64,000 nucleotides of DNA from Paecilomyces variotii (taxonomy: Eukaryota). How positions within the stretch are numbered: the stretch's first letter is position 1; each line of letters begins with the position of its first letter. Below the pieces are notes generated by a model. That model was not told where the DNA came from. It worked only from the letters and a program-made list of their open reading frames with translations, and made no database searches. The stretch lies in NCBI GenBank assembly GCA_004022145.1, contig RCNU01000004.1. One strand, given 5' to 3'. The position numbers and the translations under genes were made by a program. Shown here one piece after another: positions 39,169 to 63,112 of this stretch.

Positions 39169-42100
39169 TCAAATCAAATCCCTCTGCTGCCTCGCTTCGA
39201 TAATTTCCTCTCTCCCAATCGAACTCCTCTCACACATACCCCAGAAAACGCCCCCCTGGTCGAATAATTCGAGAGGCGTGCCCACTTCCCCGACACGACC
39301 CTGATCGATCACGCAGATGCGATCGTAGCCGATGATCGTCTTCAGACGATGCGCGATACAAAGTAGCGTCTTTCCCCTGAAGCCATCGAGGATGGTGCGC
39401 TGGATGCGACGATCTGTCTCGAAGTCCACGGAGCTGGTGGCTTCGTCGCAGATGATGATTTGGCTGTTTCGCACGAGGGCGCGGGCGAGGGCCATCAGTT
39501 GGCGTTGGCCGAGGGAGAAGTTCTGGCCTTGGTCGTCGACGGAGGTGTCGAGTGTGATGCGGTTCTGGGGTGCGGCATTGTTGTTGTTGTTGTCATTGTT
39601 GTTGTTTGGGTCGGCGTCAACGATACCTGCTTGGCGGAGGGCAGACCATAATTCGAGATCGGAGTGGGCGTTGAATGGATCCAGGTTCGAGCGGACGGTG
39701 CCTTTGAATAGAGTTGGGTCCTGAGGGATGATGGACATGCGACTGCGAAGATCGCTGAGTCCAACGGTGTTGATGTTGATGTTATCGATCGTGATGGAGC
39801 CGCCGGATAACTCGACTAGGCGGAAGAGAGCGCTCATGATACTGGATTTGCCAGCACCGGTACGCCCGACAATTCCGACTTTCTCGCCCGGTTGGATGTG
39901 CAGGGACAGCCCTTGAAGAACGAGGGGTAGTTCGGCACGGTATCTCATCTGGACGTTATCGAAGACGATCTCTCCGCGTTCGGGCCAGCTTTGGGGCAAA
40001 TCGACAGCAGTGTGCTCGGGGGCTTCCTGTTCGAGAGAGAGACCGTAGTAGTGCAATCTCTCGGCGGAGTTCATGTTGTTTTGCATTTCAGTGACTTGTC
40101 GAACGGTGAACTGGAGCATTTGCATTATGGATATAACGTATGAGAGAACCAGGCCGCTGATGCTAGGACTGATTTCGAAGCGCGATGTGACCACTAGCAT
40201 GCATACAATGAACGTGAGGATGATACCGATGGCATCAATTCGTACGTTCAGCCATCTCTGATTGGCAAAGGTCAGGAAATAAGCACTGTTCATGTCATCG
40301 ATGGCGTCGTTAAGTCGATCCGAGAACTGCTTCTGCAGACCATACGCCCTCACAGTCGGGGTGCCTAGGACGGCTTCATTGAAGCGAGCGAAGACGTGAC
40401 TGCGGAGGACGGCCTCGTGTCGGTTCACTTCTCTGGCGGATGGTCGGTAATACATGGCCATGATCACGTAGAGAGTAAACAGGGGCACAAGGGCGGCAGC
40501 AAAGTAGTAATAATAGGCAATTGTCAGGATGAAAATGGCGATTAGGGAGGCGATGGTCATGCAGGCCATTCGAATGCTGTCAGACAGGTTGTTGTCCATC
40601 GTGTCGACATCCTTGGATAGTCGATTCATCACTCGGCCCAGGGGCGTAGTGTCGAAGAAAGACATCGGAGCTCGAACAACACGCTGTAGAGCGCGACGGA
40701 GCATGCCTTTACTGGCTCTTGTGCCAAGGATAGAGACTGAGACGGCCCATGCGAAGACTGTGACGGCTGCGACAACACCCAGGGCGGCGTAAACACCTAT
40801 CTAGAGAAATAGTCAGTATAGCGGTAGGATGCTTGGGAGGTATCTTCAACATACGTAAGCACCTGTCGAGAGGCCAAACTTATCTGATGACCACCATGCC
40901 AGCCACAGACTCGTCAAAGTGTTTGCTCCTTGTGAGATGATCAGGAAGAATAGTGTCATAGGAGCAATCCAGACAGAGCCAGTAGACTTGCAATAATCCA
41001 CGTAAACGCTCATGGGGACTCCCTTGACTGCCCGGTCCTCCTGTTGCATCAGGGCATCAGCCGAATCGCCCTTCTGCTTTTTCGGTCCTCCGGCGACCAT
41101 GTTCTGATCAGTAGGCCTGTTCTCGACAACGGGGTCAGTTGTGTCGACCGTTTCCATGATACTCTGGAACTCCTCATTCTTCTCCATAAGAGCATCAAAG
41201 GTATCGAAGGCAGTAATATGGCCGTCCTGCATAATAATGATCCGGTCGCAGCGATTCAAGATGTGCAATTGATGTGTCGCAAGGATACGGCATTTGTCTT
41301 TGAGTAGACCGCAGATGGCATGTTGCATCAGGTGACGACCAACGTGAGCGTCGACGGCGGATAGAGGGTCATCCAAAAGCACGATATCGGCGTCAGAGTA
41401 AATGGCTCGAGCGAGAGACAGACGCTGCTTTTGTCCACCGGAAAGGTTGATGCCACGTTCTCCCACCTCTGTCAAGTTACCGTGCGGAAGCATCTCCAGA
41501 TCATGGCCAAGAGCACAGGCGTCAACAACACGATCGTACTTGTCCTTGTCAAATTCACTGCCAAAGGTGATGTTTTCCAGGATAGTAGCATTCTGAATCC
41601 AAGCCTGCTGAGGGCAGAACGCACGAGAGCCACTGATCACGGCGGACCCTCGCACCCGACGCATATCTCCCGCGATAGCAGACAGAAGCGAACTCTTTCC
41701 GGAACCAACACTTCCAATGACACCGATGAGTTCTTGTTTACCGGCGACCAAGTTGATATCAAGAATTTTGAAAGGTGGCTGTGGTCCTGGGGTCTCTTCG
41801 GAGGTGTCATCGGGAGTCACAGCCTGAGAGATGTCAGTGCTGCTGACGGGCATCTTTTCCGGGTCATGATCCGCGCTGGCTTTGGTCTTTTGTGCCTTCT
41901 TTGCTTCCTTCTTCGCCTTCTTCGCATCGAACTTTTTGTTGTTTCCCTGGCCGCCCTTTGCCTCTTCATCGAGGTTTGCTTCCCAGGTAAAGTCTGCGTG
42001 CTCGATGGCAACGGCGTCTAGGCTGTCCTTGCGGATCTCAATGTCATCCTTCTGGTCTTCGGCAAGTAGGAACTGCTCGATTCGCCCAATACCAGTGAAT

Positions 42101-43538
42101 GCATCAGCAACCAATCCGATGATCATAGGTAAAATGGTCAACGGCTGACGCAGCTGATTGAACAGCGCCAGCGATGAGAACACCGGTGCAGGGTTCAGCG
42201 GATGCTTGGAAAGCTGGAAAGTGATGAATGCCAACATGGATGCAAAGACCGGGATACAGACACCGAAAGCGTTGATACCATTTCGGGTACCAAGCAGCAT
42301 CTGTACCGATCGCAGCTCTTTGTTTCGAATGGCGGAGATACGCTGCAGAAAGTCGCGCTCCCAGTTGTAATACTTCACAAATCGGATTCCTTGAAGGATT
42401 TCCTGCGTGAGGCCGACTCTCTCGTCCGTGAACTTGTTGGCCTTGGCACGTCGACCGAGGAGGCTCTTGACCGCTATGCCCATTGTGGGCACGGCGAGGA
42501 AGAAGATGCCGATTCCAGGAAGCGCACTATAGGTCAAGTTGATCAGAAGCAAGATAATCGTGACGATGATAGACACTGGACTGCTCCAGGCCAGGTGAAA
42601 CCATCCAGACGCTTTGTCGATACGGTAGGTATCCATCGACATCAAGTTGATGATGCGACCATTGCTCCAGCCCTGGCTCTCGCGCGCCTTCTGCGCCTTG
42701 CGCTTTTCCTTCTCGTCATCACCGCTCTCTTGCTCCAGCTTCTTCGCATACCATTCCTTCTCCTCCTCACTTCCGGGTTTGATATCCATCGGCAGTTCAT
42801 CCAAGACTTTACCACCGGCCTTCGCTCTACCCGAGATGGTCATGGCCTTGTCAAAAATCAGCGCAGTCAACGCAGACCGGACCTCTCCACCAAACACCAT
42901 GCCGCGATACATGAAATGGTTCATGCCAACACTGCTGATAATCTGCATGCCGGCGATACAGAAGACATATCCAATACCTTTGCCGATCGGCGGGCCCTTG
43001 GTGTGCGTCTCGTCTGCCACAAAGGCTTCTGCCGCAAAGGCAATGAGGTATTTGAGCACGAACGGGATCAGCACTTGCGACATACTGGCCACTAGTGCGC
43101 CAATGGCCCCGATGGTGAAATCCATTTTAAAGGTCTCATAGATGGCGAATGCCAGGGGTCGTTTCGACCCGGCTTTGACGCGAGCGTTGAACCTTTCTTT
43201 CAGCTTTCCTGAAAACTGGCGCGCAGAACGGTCTGGGTTCACGAGCCAGATGTCGTTCAGTTCAATGGGACGTTTCCAGCCAACCTGTTCACATAGTCAA
43301 TATCCCGTATTCCTTGCTCGATTTTCTGTGATTTCGGGATATAGATATATATACGTACTGCCAAAAGTGGAGCAGTCCATTGGAAAGTCAGCAGACTAAG
43401 AAACCCGGCATTGTATTCCGGACATACTGTCCGTTCCTTGGGGACAGGCGGTTTTTCTTTTGACAGGATCGTCAGTGTCGGATACCACTTCTTGTGCTGG
43501 TGTTTCACAACATCTGGGCTGCTTGTCGAGTCCGCCAT
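39169..43538 (-). CDS. ABCC/MRP transporter, Yor1-like
   Basis: CPEYNAGFLSLLTFQW N-terminus, GSVGSGKSS, NLSGGQKQR, LLDDPLSAVD, FFDTTPLGR, GRTGAGKSS, FSLGQRQL, DEATSSVD; two introns. Confidence 0.93.
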
Positions 43539-44817: not shown

Positions 44818-47800
44818 TCATGCACCCATGTGGATGAACGGTGCCCACGACAGCACGTCCTTACTCCGAGCCACTCTTGGGCTCAGTCGGATTCTCTGAA
44901 GCGCTTGGTGCAGGCAATAAGCAATGTCATGACAGCGGGAAGTCGAAGGGTCACCTAGCCGGCGCCCAATTTCCTCGTAGAAGAGCTTAGCCACTTGAAC
45001 GGCGGCTTTGTCGCTGGTGTCCCAGAGGGTTCCAACTACATGCGGGAACCCAATCAGCTGGAAAGCACTGGCGACGTGGATGATTTCGTCCATGAGTTCC
45101 TCCGCAGAGTTCTCCGCCGTGGAGCAAGCAGATAGGTACGCCAGACGGGCGTCGTCGTGGTTGAGCATCGAGATCTCTCGAACGGTAAGCCGCTCAGGAT
45201 TTCCGTCATGGCCGGGTGCAAGCAGCAATGCCGCATCAGAAGGATTGTTTGGATCCGGAGACCCGTGGCATGCAAAGTGAATGAAATGGTGTCGGGGGAG
45301 TTCACGCAAGATATCCGTCTTGGACGGCATATCGAGGACTGTATATGTCACAGATCCCATACTTCTCTGGATCGCTTCAATCTCATCATGTGTCTTCAGA
45401 CTAGGCTTGCCCATGGTCTCAGGCACAGGAACGATTAACATCTTTACATCTGCGTCCGGCGGGGAAGGTCGCTGTCCTTTCTCGCGGGAGAAGCGGAGTC
45501 CTTTAAACGTGGGCGTGTAGCTGGAGATAACGTAGTCCATAGTCACAGACTGCTCATCCCCAGCTGCGTGTAGCGGAAACAGACCCATATACCCGCTGGC
45601 CACCCACCATAACCGCGGAACATGGTGTTCAGGCTTGGTCGACATGAGCCCCAAATGTAAGAGAACCGGCCGCACCGCTGCTTCCCACAACCACTGCATT
45701 ATATCCCGGAGTTCTTTGTTCCGTTTTGCCTTGGTGCTCGGCTTGCCACGAGATAGCCGTTCATTCCCTACCAGACGTGCAGCATTGCGTTTCAGTTCAT
45801 CCAAGGATAGGTCAAGAGGGATGCTAACAATACCCCTCTTGGTCGCAATCAAGGCGTCGCTTCGGTATTCGGTAACATTGAACGCTGCTACAGGGCCTTT
45901 CTGGGCAAGTTCGACAAAGTCGGCCGCCGATAATGGAACGCGGAAATGCTCAAACCCGGAGATAGTCCGAATCTTCTGCTCAATGGCTTCAAGTTCCTTC
46001 ATACTCTCCGTCCGTCGTGAGATAGCATTCGAAAAGTTAGTCTTCAGCCCTTGGAAGTTCAACGATCCGGGGGTTCGCTGATGCTTGAGCGTGTCCGCAC
46101 TGGGTGCCATGCCATTGCCGGACGGAAGCAAAATCTGTCGACGCAGTTGTATGTATTGATTGTACAGCAGCGGGTCAATGCGCTGCAAGCCGGATATATC
46201 AGCGCGTAGATCGATGGTCAGACTGCCAATGACGCCCCGGCCAGCTTCCAACATCTCGACAGCCTCTGCGGCCGAGCCGCCCGCCTGGAGCACAGCAGAT
46301 GCAGCCAGTGATGAGAAATTGGTCATGTTCTTGATCAGGTGTTGCTGGTCATCACGATTCAACCAGCGGGGTACCAACCACGGCAAGAGCTGCACAACAT
46401 CTCTGGCTACAGTCGTAGCCTTAGCCCAGTCCTCTTTCCTAACATGACAGTCGAAGGCGTTTTGGCCGGCCTTGATGCGATCCAGAGGCGGCGCGTTGTA
46501 CTGTTGAAGAGCTTCGGTAAAAAGAGCGACGGGCTCTCGATTGCCAGTGATTATCTGCCCCCCTTGGACACATGGATCCCTGAGCAAGGAACCAAGGTGA
46601 TTTAGGTACATTGCACAGTTGGGATGTCCCTGGGGGGCTGCATCGACTGCTTGAGAACCCTTCCGAACAGCTTCCTGCAAGTCAGAGAGATGACCCTGAC
46701 TCCGAAAACGATCGAGAAGCCTGCAGCTCAGATTATGTAGTAAAACAGGACGGTCCGGGTGACGGTAGAGAATCATGTTCAACGCCTTTTGTCCGAGCAA
46801 GATTGCTTCGTTTAGGTCCGCAGTAGATTTAGTCTTGAGGAAACGAGCTCCAAGATGAACACTCAGACTGTTCAGAATGCTGACGCGAATCGGTTCATCC
46901 TCTCGAACTATTGCTGATGCTTGTTGTCCCATCTCGATCGCTCTGTTGAGATCACTCACAGTGTCCGTTCGTTTGTAAAGGCTACCGAATTGATTGCCAA
47001 GAGTGTATAGGAAGCTGACTCGGCAAGGGTGGTTGAAGGGAGTTAGATGAACAACCTTCTGCATGAGATAAATTGCTTCTTGCAGATCCACCAAGGCGCC
47101 AATTTGCTCAAACCTATGCGTCAGCTGAGAACTCAGACTGTACAAAAGCTCAGCACGGATAGGATCGTCCAGAGAAGCAATTGTTAGGGCCTCCTGACTG
47201 GCGCGGATTGCGGTTTCAAGGTCGGTCAACCAGCCGGTCCTCAGGAAGCTGATCTCCAGTCCGATGCTCAGTTCATTGAGGCAAATAGCACGGTTAGGAT
47301 TGGCGCGTGATATCCCATCCATAGCTTTCCGAGCGAGTTGGATCGATTCACGGATGTCCGCCACGGCCTCGGTCTTCATATAACGGTCCCGTAAACGACG
47401 GCTCAGTGCACACAGATTGACGGACCGCTCGGAATCATTTACAGGTCCCAGGTTGATTGCCTCCTCGGTCATCCTAATGGCCATGTCCAGATCCTCTATG
47501 CTTCCAAGCGTCTGGTATCGGTAATGGAGGTGATTACTCAATGTTAGCAGGTAATCCGTCCGCGAAGGATGGTCGTGGGGCGTGGCCTCTAGAAATCTGG
47601 TCTGGAGCTCAATGGCTTGTTCCAAGCTGGCCACTCTCGCCGGGGTTTCAGAATGGTATCCCAACCGTTCGGCCAGATATACTGGGATATCTGCAAAATC
47701 ACCCGCGTCGCTTGGGGTGGTATCCCAAGTAGCTTGTGCCAAGTAAGCAGAACTCCTTCGAGAGTCCATGTCGCTGTTTGGGCCGAACGACAGGGAAAGA

Positions 47801-48633
47801 GGGCTGTCTAGACGCTTGAAGATCATCGATTCTTGTGCCATTGTCGCTTGTAAGGCCTCCTCCTCTTCGTCATCTGTCGGATCTGGAGTCTCTATCGCAT
47901 GAAGGTTCACCCCAGTACTATTGAGCCGATTTCCCAGTGGAGTATCCTGCCGTTCGATATGAATGGCTCCTCCAACAAGCTTGGTATCATTGGAGCTGTT
48001 GATTGTTTGCTTTGGCGTATCAAACGCATTGTCAGGCTCCAGTGCCTTCTCCAAGTCCTCGAAACTCTTCTGATAGCGGATCCCTAGATTGTTAAGATAC
48101 TTGATCCATCCCTGACGACTCCCGCTTTCGAACTCTACTGGCTCCTGTGTAACTTTGATGGTCTGATCCAGACCGCCCAGATCTTCCAGTCTTGAGAATG
48201 GATAGCCTCGATAAGAGCTAGGACTGTTTGGACAGCTAGTATGCGGCTCATCGATGGGAGAGAATGTACTCGATGCCTCCACTGATCGGGAGCCTTCGGC
48301 TGATCGGTCGTCTGGGGAATCAGATTCATCGTCGAGTATTCGTCTCGAGATCGTGCGACTTGCAATAATAGCATGCTGGGCGAGCTGCAGAGATTCCGAC
48401 AAGTCCTGAACCTTCCCTTCTCGCTCAAATCGCTCCCGAAGCCGCCTGCTGAGCTCACTGAGATAGGCTGGGCGCTCTGAATCTGAACATAGATCTACTG
48501 CCTGTCGTGCGAGTTTCACGGATTCATGAAGATGGTCTATGTTTCCGGTTTCGCGGTACAACCGCACAAGCTCGACGCCTAGGCGATCAAGGCGCGTCGC
48601 CTCCTGCACTTGGTCATGGCTGGTAAGATCCAT
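44818..48633 (-). CDS. TPR-repeat + CHAT domain (caspase-like/HetF) protease, 1271 aa, intronless
   Basis: About 45-aa HPxR..L..L...L..R....G...DL..AI repeats; CHAT motifs LWEAAVRPVL, LWWVASGYMGLFPLHAAG, SSYTPT, HFACHG (His), AYLSACSTA (Cys), GFPHVVGTLW, WAPFIHMGA. Confidence 0.93.
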   Translation of the reverse strand: MDLTSHDQVQEATRLDRLGVELVRLYRETGNIDHLHESVKLARQAVDLCSDSERPAYLSELSRRLRERFEREGKVQDLSESLQLAQHAIIASRTISRRILDDESDSPDDRSAEGSRSVEASSTFSPIDEPHTSCPNSPSSYRGYPFSRLEDLGGLDQTIKVTQEPVEFESGSRQGWIKYLNNLGIRYQKSFEDLEKALEPDNAFDTPKQTINSSNDTKLVGGAIHIERQDTPLGNRLNSTGVNLHAIETPDPTDDEEEEALQATMAQESMIFKRLDSPLSLSFGPNSDMDSRRSSAYLAQATWDTTPSDAGDFADIPVYLAERLGYHSETPARVASLEQAIELQTRFLEATPHDHPSRTDYLLTLSNHLHYRYQTLGSIEDLDMAIRMTEEAINLGPVNDSERSVNLCALSRRLRDRYMKTEAVADIRESIQLARKAMDGISRANPNRAICLNELSIGLEISFLRTGWLTDLETAIRASQEALTIASLDDPIRAELLYSLSSQLTHRFEQIGALVDLQEAIYLMQKVVHLTPFNHPCRVSFLYTLGNQFGSLYKRTDTVSDLNRAIEMGQQASAIVREDEPIRVSILNSLSVHLGARFLKTKSTADLNEAILLGQKALNMILYRHPDRPVLLHNLSCRLLDRFRSQGHLSDLQEAVRKGSQAVDAAPQGHPNCAMYLNHLGSLLRDPCVQGGQIITGNREPVALFTEALQQYNAPPLDRIKAGQNAFDCHVRKEDWAKATTVARDVVQLLPWLVPRWLNRDDQQHLIKNMTNFSSLAASAVLQAGGSAAEAVEMLEAGRGVIGSLTIDLRADISGLQRIDPLLYNQYIQLRRQILLPSGNGMAPSADTLKHQRTPGSLNFQGLKTNFSNAISRRTESMKELEAIEQKIRTISGFEHFRVPLSAADFVELAQKGPVAAFNVTEYRSDALIATKRGIVSIPLDLSLDELKRNAARLVGNERLSRGKPSTKAKRNKELRDIMQWLWEAAVRPVLLHLGLMSTKPEHHVPRLWWVASGYMGLFPLHAAGDEQSVTMDYVISSYTPTFKGLRFSREKGQRPSPPDADVKMLIVPVPETMGKPSLKTHDEIEAIQRSMGSVTYTVLDMPSKTDILRELPRHHFIHFACHGSPDPNNPSDAALLLAPGHDGNPERLTVREISMLNHDDARLAYLSACSTAENSAEELMDEIIHVASAFQLIGFPHVVGTLWDTSDKAAVQVAKLFYEEIGRRLGDPSTSRCHDIAYCLHQALQRIRLSPRVARSKDVLSWAPFIHMGA

Positions 48634-49304
48634 GATAGCCAGTACGCGAAGGATAGATCTGAATCATAGCAAAGTGGTGGACACTCGAGTGGTAACACGC
48701 CGGCCTGGATTGGTGGTTCCCTGTGCGGTCCGGTCCGCGAACAAGAAAGAGCGGTTGCTGGCGTCGATTGGAGTCAATTGAATACTGTGAGCCTGTCGAA
48801 TGGCACGAATCGCGTCTCTTATTATCATATACACAAGAGAGATAGCGATTAGAGTTGAACCCGACTAACACCCGGATGCCGCAATCATTGATCTCCCTCC
48901 CGTTTGACAGCATGCAGGGCGTGCGATCCAGGCAATTCAATTTCTGGAACTTTCAGCATGACTCACGCTAGCACTAACCGGTTTAAAGGAACAGCTGGTT
49001 TGATTTTGATCTCTAAGTCGCGATGAATCTGGAGGACTGACTGCGGTGATCAGGTCACTATCCTGTCCGTGCTTCGATATGAAACACGACGGTCCCTGTC
49101 AAAGTGCATCAACAACGCGCAAGATCCGCACCCGTGACCCCTCACACGGCCCCTATTCTGCAACTGTAAACATCGGGTGAAGTTAGTTGGAACATGTGAA
49201 TAATTCGTTGAAGGGCTTCGCGATCTGTAGTCAAGACATTGCGCTTCCGCAAAAGTCGACCTTTCCACTGGCGGAGAGTCGACCTCTCTCATCTGAGCAT
49301 CGAG

Positions 49305-50171
49305 ATGGCTCCACGCTTAGCACTCGGCCATTGCTTCTTCTCCCATGATGATGTGGAGCTGGCGAGCCTAATTCCCAACATCCGGGACCCTGAACTAGAT
49401 GCGATGGAGAACCCTTACCCTCTGCAGAGAAGCGATTATACGGTGAAAAGAGTCCACGACTATTCCGCCCTCCTGCGCACGCAAAGGACCAGGAAGGGCG
49501 AAGCCGTTCTGTCGAAAGTCGTCAAATTTACATCAAAAAAGACTCGTCTGTCGAACATGCACCTCGAAGCGCGAACGGGGTATATCTACACGCTGCGGAA
49601 GCCATCGGTCTGGTTTCGGCGACTCTGCGAAGATAAGATAATCCGACACTGGTTGCAAGAACAGATCGAAGATGGAAACGTGGTCCACTTCGTGGTTGGA
49701 CTTCACACGCTCTTCGATGCGGCGACAAGCAGCAACGCGAATCTAGCCATGCAGCATTCCGGGGAGCTCACTATGCCAGTGAGCGATGCTGGTGGATGGT
49801 CCAATCTGTCTCATGCGGGCGACTTTAGTCTCTCGGGGGGGCAGTGGTATAATAAAGATTCCCAGAATGCGTGCAAGGCGCCCGGTGAACAGATCTTTGC
49901 GATTCGCGTGAAAAAGGTCAAGTTTCGCTTCTGGGATACCCATGACGTTGAGAACGTGCGTCTGGGCAAGAACAGCTACTGGAAAATGGCGTCGGACAAC
50001 AGAAGCGCCACCGAGGACGACTCAGAAATCGTGGAGGCATTCTTGGACAAAGCAGAAAAGGCGGAATCTGACAGCGAAGATGATGAAAAGTCCGACAAGT
50101 TTCCTGGGCGACTGAGTGACGATGATTGGAGCGATGACGAGCTTTATTTCATCGACAGTGATGAAGAGTGA
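49305..50171 (+). CDS. Fungal gasdermin-like protein (RCD-1/HET-Q1 family), ~288 aa, intronless
   Basis: Pattern LASLIPNIRDP...YTLRKPSVWFRRLC...WL..QIEDGNVVHFVVGLHTLFDA...PGEQIFAIRVKKV...YW; size near 290 aa; acidic C-terminal tail; divergent from a protease gene. Confidence 0.8.
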   Translation: MAPRLALGHCFFSHDDVELASLIPNIRDPELDAMENPYPLQRSDYTVKRVHDYSALLRTQRTRKGEAVLSKVVKFTSKKTRLSNMHLEARTGYIYTLRKPSVWFRRLCEDKIIRHWLQEQIEDGNVVHFVVGLHTLFDAATSSNANLAMQHSGELTMPVSDAGGWSNLSHAGDFSLSGGQWYNKDSQNACKAPGEQIFAIRVKKVKFRFWDTHDVENVRLGKNSYWKMASDNRSATEDDSEIVEAFLDKAEKAESDSEDDEKSDKFPGRLSDDDWSDDELYFIDSDEE

Positions 50172-51691: not shown

Positions 51692-52561
51692 ATGAGAGCC
51701 GCCGTCACATCTGGCAGGCTGCTCCGACAGCTCTCCACCAGCAGCAGGGCATCGCCAGCAACACTGACAGTACAACGGTCTCGATTCCCGGGAGATGTGC
51801 CTAACAACGTGTGTCTCCTATGTCAGCATTGGTCTGGAAGTGCTAGAATTACGCGCCCGCAGGCCCATCCTGAGCAAATAGGGCGACGGTTTGCTTCCAC
51901 AAGCAAAGACTCCGCCGCGACGCCCGCGTCCGAATCAAACGCGGATGGAGTTGAAGACAATGACTCCGTGGCTGGCATAATGGCCGTTAGTCCGGACGTC
52001 TCCAACTACTATAGCATTTTCCCCAAGACTCTCCCGAACGGTCCGCCGCCCAACTCTCCTTTCGACATCTCAGTTGCCGATCTTCGTCGCGAATTCCTTG
52101 CTCTCCAGAACCAGATACACCCGGATAAGCATGCCCCTGGCCATGCGAAGGAACGAGCAGAAGCCCTGTCTTCTCGCATCAATGAGGCGTACCGGACGCT
52201 GGCAGACCCGCTAGCGAGAGCACAATATATCCTCGCCCATTGGCACGGAATCGACGTGATGGCCGAGGACGGATCGTCTCAACATGCATTGGATCCGGAG
52301 ATGCTGATGGAAGTGATGGATGTGCAGGAGACCATCGAGGAAGTCGGGGCTGATCCTCAGGCGGAAGCGGAGATTGAGCGACTCAAGGGAGAAAATAATG
52401 CCCGACTGGAGGAGACGGTGAAGGCGTTAGGAGAAGCTTTCGACCACGGCGACATAGAGGCGGCAAGGAAAGAATGCGTTCGCCTCCGGTTCTGGTACAG
52501 CCTCGCACAAGCCCTGCGGGACTGGGAACCGGGCACAACGGAGCTTAGAATCGTGCATTGA
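51692..52561 (+). CDS. JAC1: Mitochondrial Fe-S cluster J-type co-chaperone (HscB)
   Basis: Arg/Ser-rich presequence, J-domain HPDK, INEAYRTLADPLARAQY, LMEVMDVQE HscB C-terminal domain. Confidence 0.93.
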   Translation: MRAAVTSGRLLRQLSTSSRASPATLTVQRSRFPGDVPNNVCLLCQHWSGSARITRPQAHPEQIGRRFASTSKDSAATPASESNADGVEDNDSVAGIMAVSPDVSNYYSIFPKTLPNGPPPNSPFDISVADLRREFLALQNQIHPDKHAPGHAKERAEALSSRINEAYRTLADPLARAQYILAHWHGIDVMAEDGSSQHALDPEMLMEVMDVQETIEEVGADPQAEAEIERLKGENNARLEETVKALGEAFDHGDIEAARKECVRLRFWYSLAQALRDWEPGTTELRIVH

Positions 52562-59093: not shown

Positions 59094-60311
59094 ATGTTCG
59101 AAGAACATCTAATGGGGCCGTATCCCCGAGATGCACACTCCGCAGCGACCTCACAAAAAGATATGCTTAGTCGAAGGACCTCTATCGCCAGTTTGGAAAG
59201 GGGCTACAAATCTGAACAAAAGCTGGGCTTTAAGGATCGGATAAAGCATTTCACATGGGCCTGGTATACGCTTACTATGAGCACGGGAGGATTGGCTCTG
59301 CTCATTGCAGCGCAGCCAAATACTTTCAAGGGTTTGCGGGAAATTGGCCTAACTGTGTATATCATCAATCTTATTTTCATGAGTATTGTCTGCTCCTTGA
59401 TGGCTGCCCGTTTCATCATCCACGGCGGTTTCCTGGAATCCCTCAAGCATGAACGAGAAGGCCTCTTTTTCCCAACCTTCTGGCTCTCCATTGCGACTAT
59501 CATTACAGGTCTACACAGATACTTCGGTGACGAGGCTACGGAACCCTTCCTAATAGTCATCGACGTTCTCTTCTGGATCTACTGCGCCTGTACATTCACC
59601 GTCGCGGTTGTGCAATACTCGTTTGTCTTCTCCGCCCACTCATACGGTCTCCAGACCATGATGCCATCATGGATCCTGCCAGCCTTCCCCATCATGTTGA
59701 GCGGTACCATTGCCTCCGTTGTTGCTGAAGCACAGCCGGCTAGCCAGGCGCTCCCTATGATCGTTGCTGGAACCACCTTCCAAGGCCTGGGCCTATCCAT
59801 CAGCTGTATGATGTACGCTCACTACATCGGTCGACTCATGCAAGCCGGCCTGCCAAACCGAGAGCACCGTCCTGGCATGTTCATCTGCGTTGGTCCTCCT
59901 GCTTTCACAGCCCTAGCCATTGTTGGAATGTCCAAAGGCCTGCCGGATGACACGCCGCTCATCCATAGCAGAGATGACTCGGACGTGATCGAACTGCTAG
60001 CAGTCACTTCTGCAGCCTTTCTCTGGGCTCTGAGCTTTTGGTTCTTCTGTATCGCCGCTGTCGCTGTTATCCGCAGTCCTCCAACCGCCTTCCATCTGAG
60101 CTGGTGGGCAATGGTCTTCCCCAACACCGGCTGCACCATCGCGACTATCACCCTTGGCAATGCGTTCAACAGTCCTGGCATCAAGGGAGTCGGCTCAGCC
60201 ATGACTATCTGCATTATCTGCATGTTCCTGTTCGTCCTGGGCAGCCATATCCGTGCAATCATCAACCAATCCATCATGTATCCGGGCAAGGACGAAGATG
60301 TGGCCGACTAA
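59094..60311 (+). CDS. C4-dicarboxylate/malate transporter (SLAC1/TDT family, Mae1-like)
   Basis: RIKHFTWAWYTLTMSTGG, EGLFFPTFWLS, WILPAFP, RPGMFICVGPPAFT, FHLSWWAMVFPN, YPGKDED; ~10 hydrophobic segments. Confidence 0.92.
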   Translation: MFEEHLMGPYPRDAHSAATSQKDMLSRRTSIASLERGYKSEQKLGFKDRIKHFTWAWYTLTMSTGGLALLIAAQPNTFKGLREIGLTVYIINLIFMSIVCSLMAARFIIHGGFLESLKHEREGLFFPTFWLSIATIITGLHRYFGDEATEPFLIVIDVLFWIYCACTFTVAVVQYSFVFSAHSYGLQTMMPSWILPAFPIMLSGTIASVVAEAQPASQALPMIVAGTTFQGLGLSISCMMYAHYIGRLMQAGLPNREHRPGMFICVGPPAFTALAIVGMSKGLPDDTPLIHSRDDSDVIELLAVTSAAFLWALSFWFFCIAAVAVIRSPPTAFHLSWWAMVFPNTGCTIATITLGNAFNSPGIKGVGSAMTICIICMFLFVLGSHIRAIINQSIMYPGKDEDVAD

Positions 60312-61339: not shown

Positions 61340-63112
61340 TTATTCAATTCCCCATAGTTTCACTGTTCGATCGTGTCCACAACTAGCGATCCATCTGGCG
61401 TCGTCGCTGACATCGACGCTGAGAACGTTGCCTGAGTGTCCACTCAGGGTCTTCACCAGGGACCAGTCATCGGCGCTGAAGATGTTGATGTTCTTGTCGA
61501 ACCCACTTGAAACGAAGAAAGTGCCCGACTTCTTCGGTTGTGGCGTAGCTTGGCGCTTTTCCTCTATCGTTGGAGGAGCAGGGCTGTCAATGTCCATGGC
61601 ACCGTTGGCTGCAGCAGATGGGAGATAGGAATCAGAAGACTCTGTCCCCTTGTACCACCGCAGGTCTGAGACGATGCTTTTGTGCGCTCCAAGACCGCCA
61701 ATATTCCTGACCTGTCTCAGGTCCCAACATTTGATCCATCCATCGCCTGAACCTGATAGAACCCTGTAGCCGTCTACCCCCCAATCGAGACCGAAGATCT
61801 CGCGAACATGACCCTCGAGAATCATCACAGTACGCCCGGTGCGCAGATCCCAAATACGACCGATACTGTCCAGACCACCACTAGCTAACAAGGAGCCGTC
61901 ATTGTTGAAAGCAACCGTGTAAACCTCACGGGAGTGACCTTCTTGTAACAGAAGCTCTGTAGTGGTTTCCACATCCCACAACCGCCAAGTAGTGTCGTAC
62001 GAGGCTGAGGCCACATACCGACCAGAGGGGTGGAATTCGACACGACAGACTCGCCCAGAATGGCCTTCCATGGTCGCAAGAGGCTGTGACTTGTCCAAAG
62101 ACCAGAGAGCAACATTTCCTTCTCCGCCTCCGGAAACGAGATTGACTGAAGATTCAGACACGTTCGAGCCAGGCAACGTAGCGCCGGGGAACCACGATAG
62201 TCCTCCAACGCGGTCGTTATGACCGCGGAAATGAGCCTTCTCTTCCAAATTGGGCACTGACAACAACCTGATTCCTCCGGCCCAATTTCCCGCCGCGATT
62301 GTTTGTCCATCCGGTGAAAATCGTGTGATACTGACGGGTCGCTCGCCAGCAATCTGTGAACCGTAGAGGTCGAAACCCTGAAGTTTCTCCTTGATGGCCT
62401 TGCGATGCTTGATATGCGTCCGTAGAGGAATAGTCGACTCTTCCCTTTGCCTAGCAACCCGAGCCTTTGCTCGTGGTAGCGAAAAGCGAGCGATGTCTTT
62501 CCGTGCTTCAAGTAGCGCATCTGTTCCCTCTGTATAGAATTCCTCTTGCTCATCGCCCTTCTCCATCTCTTCCGCCTCCGCGGTCACGCTTCGCATCTCG
62601 ACATCTCCCTCTTCCTGCCTGTCCGCAAGATCTGTCAAAAGCTCTCGCAACCGATCTCTCCTGTCACCCGGACCTTCTCCGAACAGTGTGATTGGTTCTC
62701 CGAGTTCTCTCAACCGTGCGCGGACTCGATTATCGTCGGTAGGAACGGCGATGGCGGCAGCTCTGCGTTTCCGCGAGAACTGCTCGAGAATAGCAGAAGC
62801 TTTTTCGGGGGCGATCCCCGCAGCGCCCGTAGGAAGGTCATAGTTGCGATCGACAGCTGTTTGAGCAGATTGGTTAGAAGCGCTTCATAGACAGCATTAT
62901 GGTTTGGTTGTGTACTTACGAACATTGGCCAGATCAATGCCGGTGTCTACTTCCTATCATCCAGCCACAGTCAGCTAACAGCCTTAGAGGATCGCGATAT
63001 AGGGGCTTAGAGACAATGGGAATAGCAATGGTAAGTGAGGGGAGAAATGGCACCAGTGGACTCTTACCTCTGCGGCCTCCTCTACATACGCCTGCCTCGC
63101 AGGGTGCATCAT
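61340..63112 (-). CDS. PRP4: U4/U6 snRNP WD40 protein Prp4
   Basis: [12 protein letters not shown] first exon; [37 protein letters not shown]4 motif; WD40 repeats including [10 protein letters not shown]. Confidence 0.93.

Follow-up and report, generated by a model that had tools for sequence, protein, structure and literature searches.

How a gasdermin-like protein encoded beside a protease gene is held inactive, and at which bond it would be released, is the question raised by a locus of the fungus Paecilomyces variotii. In the 64,000-nucleotide stretch of DNA analyzed here (the window; contig RCNU01000004.1 of assembly GCA_004022145.1), a single-exon open reading frame (ORF) at 49305 to 50171 on the plus strand, with its ATG at 49305 and its stop codon at 50169 to 50171, encodes such a protein of 288 residues. 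This gene model stands because annotated NCBI proteins of P. variotii match it, one being the protein itself (P0001) and another 99% identical (P0002). The protein ends in KNSYWKMASDNR233 followed by SATEDDSEIVEAFLDKAEKAESDSEDDEKSDKFPGRLSDDDWSDDELYFIDSDEE, with positions 49975 to 50171 covering residues 224 to 288 and the stop codon, an exact match to the quotation in an earlier description made from the letters of this DNA (the sequence-only reading). That description had noted an abrupt turn into a very acidic tail of about 55 residues and proposed that the tail is an inhibitor freed by cleavage near this Arg. The acidic turn is real: residues 234 to 288 (55 residues) contain 24 Asp or Glu and 5 Lys or Arg (net charge −19), as against 26 and 32 in residues 1 to 233 (net +6), and in none of 100,000 shuffles of the 288-residue protein were the C-terminal 55 residues equally acid rich. 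We find that the boundary between body and tail is marked throughout the family by an invariant Trp and a nearly invariant Arg, W226-x6-R233↓S234 (the arrow denotes the candidate cleaved bond), with an acidic tail behind it. The pairing of a gasdermin with a CHAT protease is a known kind of system; the family-wide signature of junction and tail is the new part.

From this layout and from the neighboring TPR-CHAT gene, we infer that the tail is the inhibitor, that the CHAT neighbor is the protease and that the cut falls at the junction. Residues 1 to 233 would form the pore-forming body and residues 234 to 288 a tail inhibiting it in cis, composed of an acidic linker, the IVEAFLDK motif, a fast-evolving polyacidic spacer and a C-terminal LYFI patch. 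Upon activation of the TPR-CHAT protein, its His1123/Cys1170 domain would cut the exposed junction at or beside Arg233↓Ser234; the tail would depart, the basic body would oligomerize and insert into the membrane, and the cell would die. Control of the gasdermin by its CHAT neighbor appears highly probable, and activation by removal of the tail is likely. For a cut at exactly R233↓S234, a placement read from sequence conservation, the chances look about even.

The conservation of the junction was assessed in homologues collected by phmmer from 1.84 billion representative sequences, which gave 558 relatives at E ≤ 1e-3, 150 of them listed. After 47 of the 150 had been left out as fragments or length outliers, the query and 103 near-full-length relatives formed a diverse alignment of 104 rows, to which family counts below refer; close homologues formed a second alignment of 29 rows. 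Trp226 is present in all 104 rows (entropy 0.0 bits) and Arg233 in 99 (Lys in three, Leu and Met in one each; 0.3 bits), amid flanking columns with entropies of 2.8 to 4.0 bits, and position 234 holds a small residue in 92 (Gly 72, Ala 11, Ser 9). Arg233 is thereby a conservation island between the last conserved block and the indel-rich acidic linker. The sequence-only reading had made its site depend on conservation of this Arg in CHAT-associated homologues, and its loss there is not what we see, because the Arg is kept in 29/29 close and 99/104 diverse homologues. In a quick maximum-likelihood tree of the core, with a median tip branch of 0.68 changes per site, the five rows lacking Arg are single leaves nested among Arg rows. 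In context, these exceptions read K-G/T/S, L-G and M-M-G, the last two being W-x6-L-G in P0145 and W-x6-M-M-G in the CHAT-linked Fusarium oxysporum cluster (P0172); the L-G of P0145 equals the Leu-Gly bond that Runella CHAT cleaves. Among the 47 omitted sequences, a loose motif scan finds W-x5-9-[R/K] with an acidic stretch behind it in 33, and the other 14 are fragments lacking the C-terminus or, judged by eye, carry W-x6-R with a less acidic continuation, with Asn in P0124. Nine P. variotii variants of the same length show no polymorphism at residues 226 to 249.

Whether Arg233 itself is the P1 residue has to be weighed against what is known of CHAT proteases. In favor of R233, the small P1′ residue mirrors, by analogy, the Gly of the Runella site, and R233 appears to open the one loop of variable length that precedes the best-conserved motif of the tail. 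To judge from sequence, the Lys, L-G and M-M-G replacements look like alternative P1 residues and not like losses of a salt bridge. Three considerations speak against the assignment. The only mapped CHAT-gasdermin site, that of Runella zeae, has Leu at P1; CHAT membership does not predict Arg, because P1 is Leu in Runella and Phe in HET-Q1; and the invariant Arg could, by analogy, have a structural role or one in the pore interface. The alternative they suggest, which we regard as unlikely but serious, is a CHAT cut behind a hydrophobic residue at another place in the junction or tail (M228 or A229 at the end of the W226 strand, or L247), with Arg233 kept for a salt bridge to the tail that holds it in place, for binding of lipid head groups or for protomer contact. 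In HET-Q1, R15, R59 and R213 indeed make protomer contacts together with the new C-terminus, and counting roughly from the conserved block at HET-Q1 residues 210 to 217, without an alignment, would place F238 N-terminal to R233 by a few residues. The L247 column is hydrophobic in 100/104 rows. It is, however, degenerate (Leu 76, Ile 11, Val 8, Phe 4) in the way buried residues are, and it is part of the best-conserved tail motif, which would be expected C-terminal to the cut if it belongs to the inhibitor. Positions 228 to 232 are highly variable (3.2 to 4.0 bits), and the L-G and M-M-G junctions of CHAT-linked members suit a P1 that tracks its protease better than a fixed salt bridge.

The sequence-only reading had likened the Arg at P1 to the specificity of separase-type clan CD proteases, a comparison that does not hold: Runella CHAT cuts after Leu, and the separase consensus ExxR, with cleavage after Arg, is absent. 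A separase site was rejected because Glu is outside the six most frequent residues of the P4 column (position 230: Ser 29, Trp 18, Ala 12, Thr 10, Leu 10, Asp 7), and the query itself reads S-D-N-R. A caspase-like Asp at P1 was likewise rejected and is unlikely because no column in the tail from 234 to 262 exceeds 60% Asp. Close to its catalytic Cys, the CHAT neighbor has two conserved acidic residues, D1182 and E1183, which are uninformative on P1 because Csx29 has both too.

The preferred reading, in which the part behind R233 is an inhibitor, draws on the composition of the tail across the family. Behind the Arg, tails have a median length of 44 residues (range 24 to 89) and a median net charge of −14, compared with +2 for the bodies; the tail charge is −8 or lower in 97/104 rows and zero or higher in none. 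Across the alignment, an acidic tail characterizes the CHAT-linked clade as a whole. Linker columns 236 to 241 are mostly Asp or Glu and rich in indels, with gaps in 33/104 rows at column 235. The motif at 242 to 249 has the consensus of two hydrophobic residues followed by E-[A/V]-x-L-x-D (E244 in 77/104, A/V245 in 96/104, D/E249 in 81/104) and reads as an alternating hydrophobic and acidic pattern. In the spacer from 250 to 275, mean identity among 28 close homologues falls to 0.14, versus 0.48 in the core, and the nine P. variotii variants place 10 of their 13 variable sites in the 55-residue tail (within residues 252 to 287, positions 50058 to 50165), eight of them in this spacer. The Trp275 of this window is Ser in seven of the nine variants. 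A window with at least three hydrophobic residues of four occurs within the last 25 residues of 90/104 homologues, compared with 4/25 spacers.

Such a tail might instead serve mainly to dock the TPR-CHAT protein (as an exosite), or to provide solubility or charge repulsion, with the body controlled in another way, as in the cleavage-independent RCD-1. We consider this improbable. RCD-1 does work with neither cleavage nor tail, and most of the tail sequence is fast evolving and of low complexity. The search for coupling between tail and core also speaks on this side and against an inhibitory contact: mutual information gave a maximum z of 3.9 among thousands of pairs, which is no signal, and the charges of tail and core are uncorrelated (rho −0.004). 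Because covariation is null, pairing of a tail strand with the basic strand 202 to 209 gains no support. Yet two tail motifs are kept family-wide, short C-terminal peptides are established inhibitors in HET-Q1 and in bacterial gasdermins (bGSDMs), whose tails have been shown to inhibit, and a related gasdermin, Q1-6 of Podospora anserina, is processed by its CHAT partner according to the available text of Clavé 2022 (PMC8851545).

That the protease is the CHAT neighbor is argued for by the pairing of the two genes. The sequence-only reading spoke of CHAT-linked homologues, and here the gasdermin does adjoin a CHAT protease gene, of 1271 residues and 671 bp away. Twelve homologue accessions, from six clusters at 90% identity, were looked up in Dataset S1 of Clavé 2022: 10 are CHAT-linked, one has no protease, one is absent from the dataset, and none is paired with a subtilisin (S8). 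Five of these six clusters carry W-x6-R, and the F. oxysporum cluster, represented by the pair EXM24801/EXM24802, carries W-x6-M-M-G. A CHAT-domain search found partners with locus tags adjacent to the gasdermin in four genomes, and 13 gasdermin/CHAT match pairs sit on contigs of equal size. In the wider catalogue of 1,884 fungal gasdermins, 19% neighbor a CHAT gene, according to the available text of Clavé 2022 (PMC8851545).

The neighbor has a CHAT domain with an intact catalytic dyad. Its Pfam match (PF12770, clan CD; E 3.6e-40) covers profile positions 2 to 289 of 289 and the last 295 residues of the protein, and all the aligned CHAT homologues (121/121) retain His1123 and Cys1170. The nearest solved relatives are Csx29, a type III-E CHAT protease (E 8.5e-5), and separase (E 5e-3). 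When the domain is aligned with Csx29, the two catalytic residues fall on the CHG and GAC motifs. Csx29 and separase differ in cleavage specificity. Other P. variotii strains have models of 1271 residues as well, with 99% identity over residues 960 to 1271 (P0220). The catalogued orthologue GAD94103.1 has 978 residues versus 1271 here, probably a difference between gene models.

Arg233 could also be cut by another protease specific for Arg or Lys, such as a fungal metacaspase, with CHAT acting earlier in the pathway or on some other substrate. Metacaspases and paracaspases cut after Arg or Lys (Johnson et al., 10.1101/2021.06.07.447441); metacaspases have moreover been implicated in fungal cell death in the literature. 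This route is nevertheless very improbable. In lysates, the Podospora CHAT domain alone processes the paired gasdermin (available text of PMC8851545), and the CHAT knock-out of Coccidioides phenocopies that of the gasdermin (available text of bioRxiv 10.64898/2026.10.27.762035); the pairing of gasdermin and CHAT genes is also tight across the clade.

The assignment of the protein to the gasdermins was an identification by the sequence-only reading that the published set of het-Q1 homologues bears out. GAD94102.1, which falls in the same 90% cluster as the Paecilomyces protein, is entered in Dataset S1 of Clavé 2022 (PMC8851545) as a het-Q1 homologue of Byssochlamys spectabilis No. 5, paired with GAD94103.1, which Dataset S2 types as TPR/CHAT and whose printed N-terminus matches the ORF at 44818 to 48633; since both are in these datasets, the pair is already catalogued. 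From its sequence, the protein is placed in the fungal gasdermins (het-Q1/rcd-1 family, fGSDM), within the CHAT-linked clade. Among ESM-Atlas feature neighbors, Bact_GSDM clusters make up 6/30 for the whole protein and 15/30 of the named clusters for residues 1 to 233, at 0.93 to 0.94, with PJVK at 0.89. Several searches count against the assignment. Homology to solved gasdermins is weak: the profile of the diverse alignment, run against 177,635 sequences of the Protein Data Bank (PDB), matched only RCD-1 chains (E 0.0035, 0.039 and 0.066), with HET-Q1 (9UV9) apparently not among the sequences, and a larger profile of 133 rows did no better (E 0.0098). Pfam gave no match for the query at E ≤ 1, the family listing of the 104 homologues lacks Bact_GSDM (PF26164), and the PADLOC gasdermin model matched 0/104. 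The animal Gasdermin family (PF04598) matched 1/104 at E 0.034, which is noise level. Metagenome scans found no relatives. A profile search of the 90% clusters yielded 36 proteins, a low number that may be due to acidic low-complexity words crowding out other candidates. In two relatives, P0073 (584 residues) and P0169 (487 residues), the gasdermin-like domain lies behind an N-terminal PNP_UDP_1 (phosphorylase superfamily) domain, which may reflect genuine fusion or the merging of gene models. PNP_UDP_1 domains are common on fungal NOD-like receptors (NLRs).

Comparison with studied systems shows which features are shared. Among these systems is the pair of P. anserina, in which the TPR-CHAT protein Q2L-6 (Pa_6_6610) processes the gasdermin Q1-6 (Pa_6_6615), the CHAT domain alone sufficing, with a barrage reaction, according to the available text of Clavé 2022 (PMC8851545), whose main text does not give the Q1-6 cleavage site. 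Like the locus described here, and from the same published catalogue, it is a two-gene cluster of a het-Q1-family gasdermin and a protein with N-terminal TPR and C-terminal CHAT. The closest studied relative is het-q1 of Coccidioides posadasii (D8B26_007977; 47% identity over 255 residues, E 6e-82), which shares the W-x6-R↓A junction, a SEIVEA motif, the acidic tail and an adjoining CHAT gene (D8B26_007976). According to the available text of bioRxiv 10.64898/2026.10.27.762035, the two knock-outs have the same phenotype, impaired maturation of spore chains, and the pair acts in enteroarthroconidial chain maturation and is localized in disjunctor cells; no mapping of the cut site in het-q1 appears in that text. 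A close relative thus acts in spore development and not in allorecognition, so that the Paecilomyces pair need not serve allorecognition either. To our knowledge, Paecilomyces does not make enteroarthroconidial-chain spores.

HET-Q1 of P. anserina, of similar length (278 residues), is cut by the subtilisin (S8) HET-Q2 after Phe238 (Phe↓Ala), which removes 40 residues, compared with a median of 44 behind the Arg here, and the exact new C-terminus matters for toxicity. In contrast to the Paecilomyces pair, its protease is of the S8 family, its P1 is Phe238, and the two genes are idiomorphic alleles instead of neighbors. According to Johnson et al. (10.1101/2021.06.07.447441), caspase-family proteases as a rule take a polar P1, and the CHAT protease of R. 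zeae (Roc-COR-CHAT) cuts its bGSDM at Leu247↓Gly248, in a loop before the inhibitory peptide. The likeness lies in a CHAT cut before a short C-terminal peptide and in the P1′ Gly found in 72/104 members of the Paecilomyces-type family; the differences are Leu at P1, a tail of about 21 residues that is not polyacidic, and an N-terminal palmitoyl-Cys absent from the Paecilomyces protein. RCD-1-1/RCD-1-2 of Neurospora (PDB 8JYZ) share the blocks around Y95-W116-G132 and G194-K206 and consist solely of a pore-forming domain that has no tail and is not cleaved. Their chains end, by extrapolation, at about query residues 223 to 233; for RCD-1-1 the gapless HMMER extrapolation gives about residue 233, an approximate value for a chain that may carry tag residues.

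Taken together, these comparisons lead us to a tentative generalization, for which we would put the chances somewhat below even: CHAT-linked fungal gasdermins may share one rule, a CHAT cut after a basic P1 in W-x6-R↓[G/A/S] that releases a polyacidic inhibitory tail with two anchors. Rare lineages would have switched P1 to Leu or Met, Leu being the residue used by the Runella CHAT, and P1 would be an evolvable lock and key for each gasdermin/protease pair. Neither this rule nor a mapped CHAT cut site for fungal gasdermins appears in the literature searched; alignments of the region may be given in the figure supplements of Sci Adv 2026 and in the Clavé 2022 SI Appendix. The motif and the two-anchor tail make the activation site of CHAT-controlled fungal gasdermins testable. 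The conserved R↓G junction is a handle for uncleavable and pre-cleaved alleles in model fungi, and it lets the role of P1 in pair specificity, and the input through the TPR sensor, be probed.

The features of the two genes are collected in Table 1. The basic patches to which the sequence-only reading had drawn attention fare unequally: RVKKVKFR (201 to 208) is kept family-wide (R/K203 in 94/104, K/R204 in 97/104, K/R206 in 59/104, K/R208 in 68/104) and the body is net positive, whereas RTQRTRKG (58 to 65) and KKTR (78 to 81) are not conserved in the diverse alignment. Its suggestion that Cys10 (GHCFF) is lipidated, by analogy to bacterial gasdermins, was rejected for lack of conservation: the column holds Cys in 1/104 diverse and 7/29 close homologues, and any Cys within the first 12 residues occurs in 9/104. 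In the HET-Q1 pore, H8 and F10 of an N-terminal segment reach into the adjacent protomer, and the GHCFF stretch probably corresponds to this segment.

Table 1. Features of the gasdermin/CHAT locus, in positions of the window
Feature	Positions	Strand	Basis
Gasdermin-like gene, 288 residues	49305..50171	+	ORF; annotated P. variotii proteins; Clavé 2022 Dataset S1 orthologue; RCD-1 profile match; Atlas look-alikes
Predicted pore-forming body, residues 1-233	49305..50003	+	Conserved core of both alignments
G8-H9-C10-F11-F12 N-terminal motif	49326..49340	+	Cys10 earlier proposed for lipidation; column not conserved
Conserved basic strand R201-R208	49905..49928	+	Family consensus Y-R-K-V-K-F-K; overlaps RCD-1-aligned block
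W226-x6-R233↓S234, candidate P1-P1′	49980..50006	+	Column conservation; candidate scissile bond between 50003 and 50004
Acidic linker, residues 234-241, variable length	50004..50027	+	Columns 236-241 mostly D/E
First conserved tail motif I242-V-E-A-F-L-D-K249	50028..50051	+	Column conservation; candidate inhibitory strand
Fast-evolving polyacidic spacer, residues 250-275	50052..50129	+	Low identity among close homologues
C-terminal motif S276-E288 with hydrophobic patch L280-Y-F-I283	50130..50168	+	Hydrophobic-window count in homologues
Divergent neighbor, TPR-CHAT protease (het-Q2-like), 1271 residues	44818..48633	-	Uninterrupted ORF; Pfam CHAT E 3.6e-40; weak TPR_10
CHAT protease domain, residues 977-1271	44821..45705	-	HFACHG and LSAC motifs
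Catalytic His1123; Cys1170	45265..45267; 45124..45126	-	Kept in aligned homologues
Divergent intergenic region, 671 bp	48634..49304	.	ORF coordinates

The intergenic region may hold a promoter shared by both genes. Metatranscriptome contigs cover the two genes and the region between them, one contig of 7 kb spanning all three, and they are no proof of transcription because the spacer is covered like the genes. In the TPR-CHAT protein, a Ser/Asp/Pro-rich stretch at residues of about 95 to 330 lies, as judged by eye, between TPR-like helices. The surroundings of the pair are ordinary, with ABC transporter halves, a co-chaperone of the HscB/DnaJ type, a SLAC1-family channel and a PRP4-like WD40 protein (39172 to 43242, 51692 to 52558, 59094 to 60308 and 61343 to 62713) and no hint of a variable or repeat-rich region around the two genes. 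A single metatranscriptome contig (run X9, depth 4.8; unverified) skips 51 nucleotides, 49368 to 49418, inside the 5′ coding region of the gasdermin; read on the minus strand, the missing segment is bounded by GT..AG, and the contig may represent either spliced antisense RNA or a CHAT gene transcript with a long 5′ leader. In the tail, seven of the nine Ser or Thr residues (positions 50004 to 50168) fit, by eye, the minimal casein kinase 2 pattern S/T-x-x-D/E, as expected by chance in acid-rich sequence, and phosphorylation there may add further acidity.

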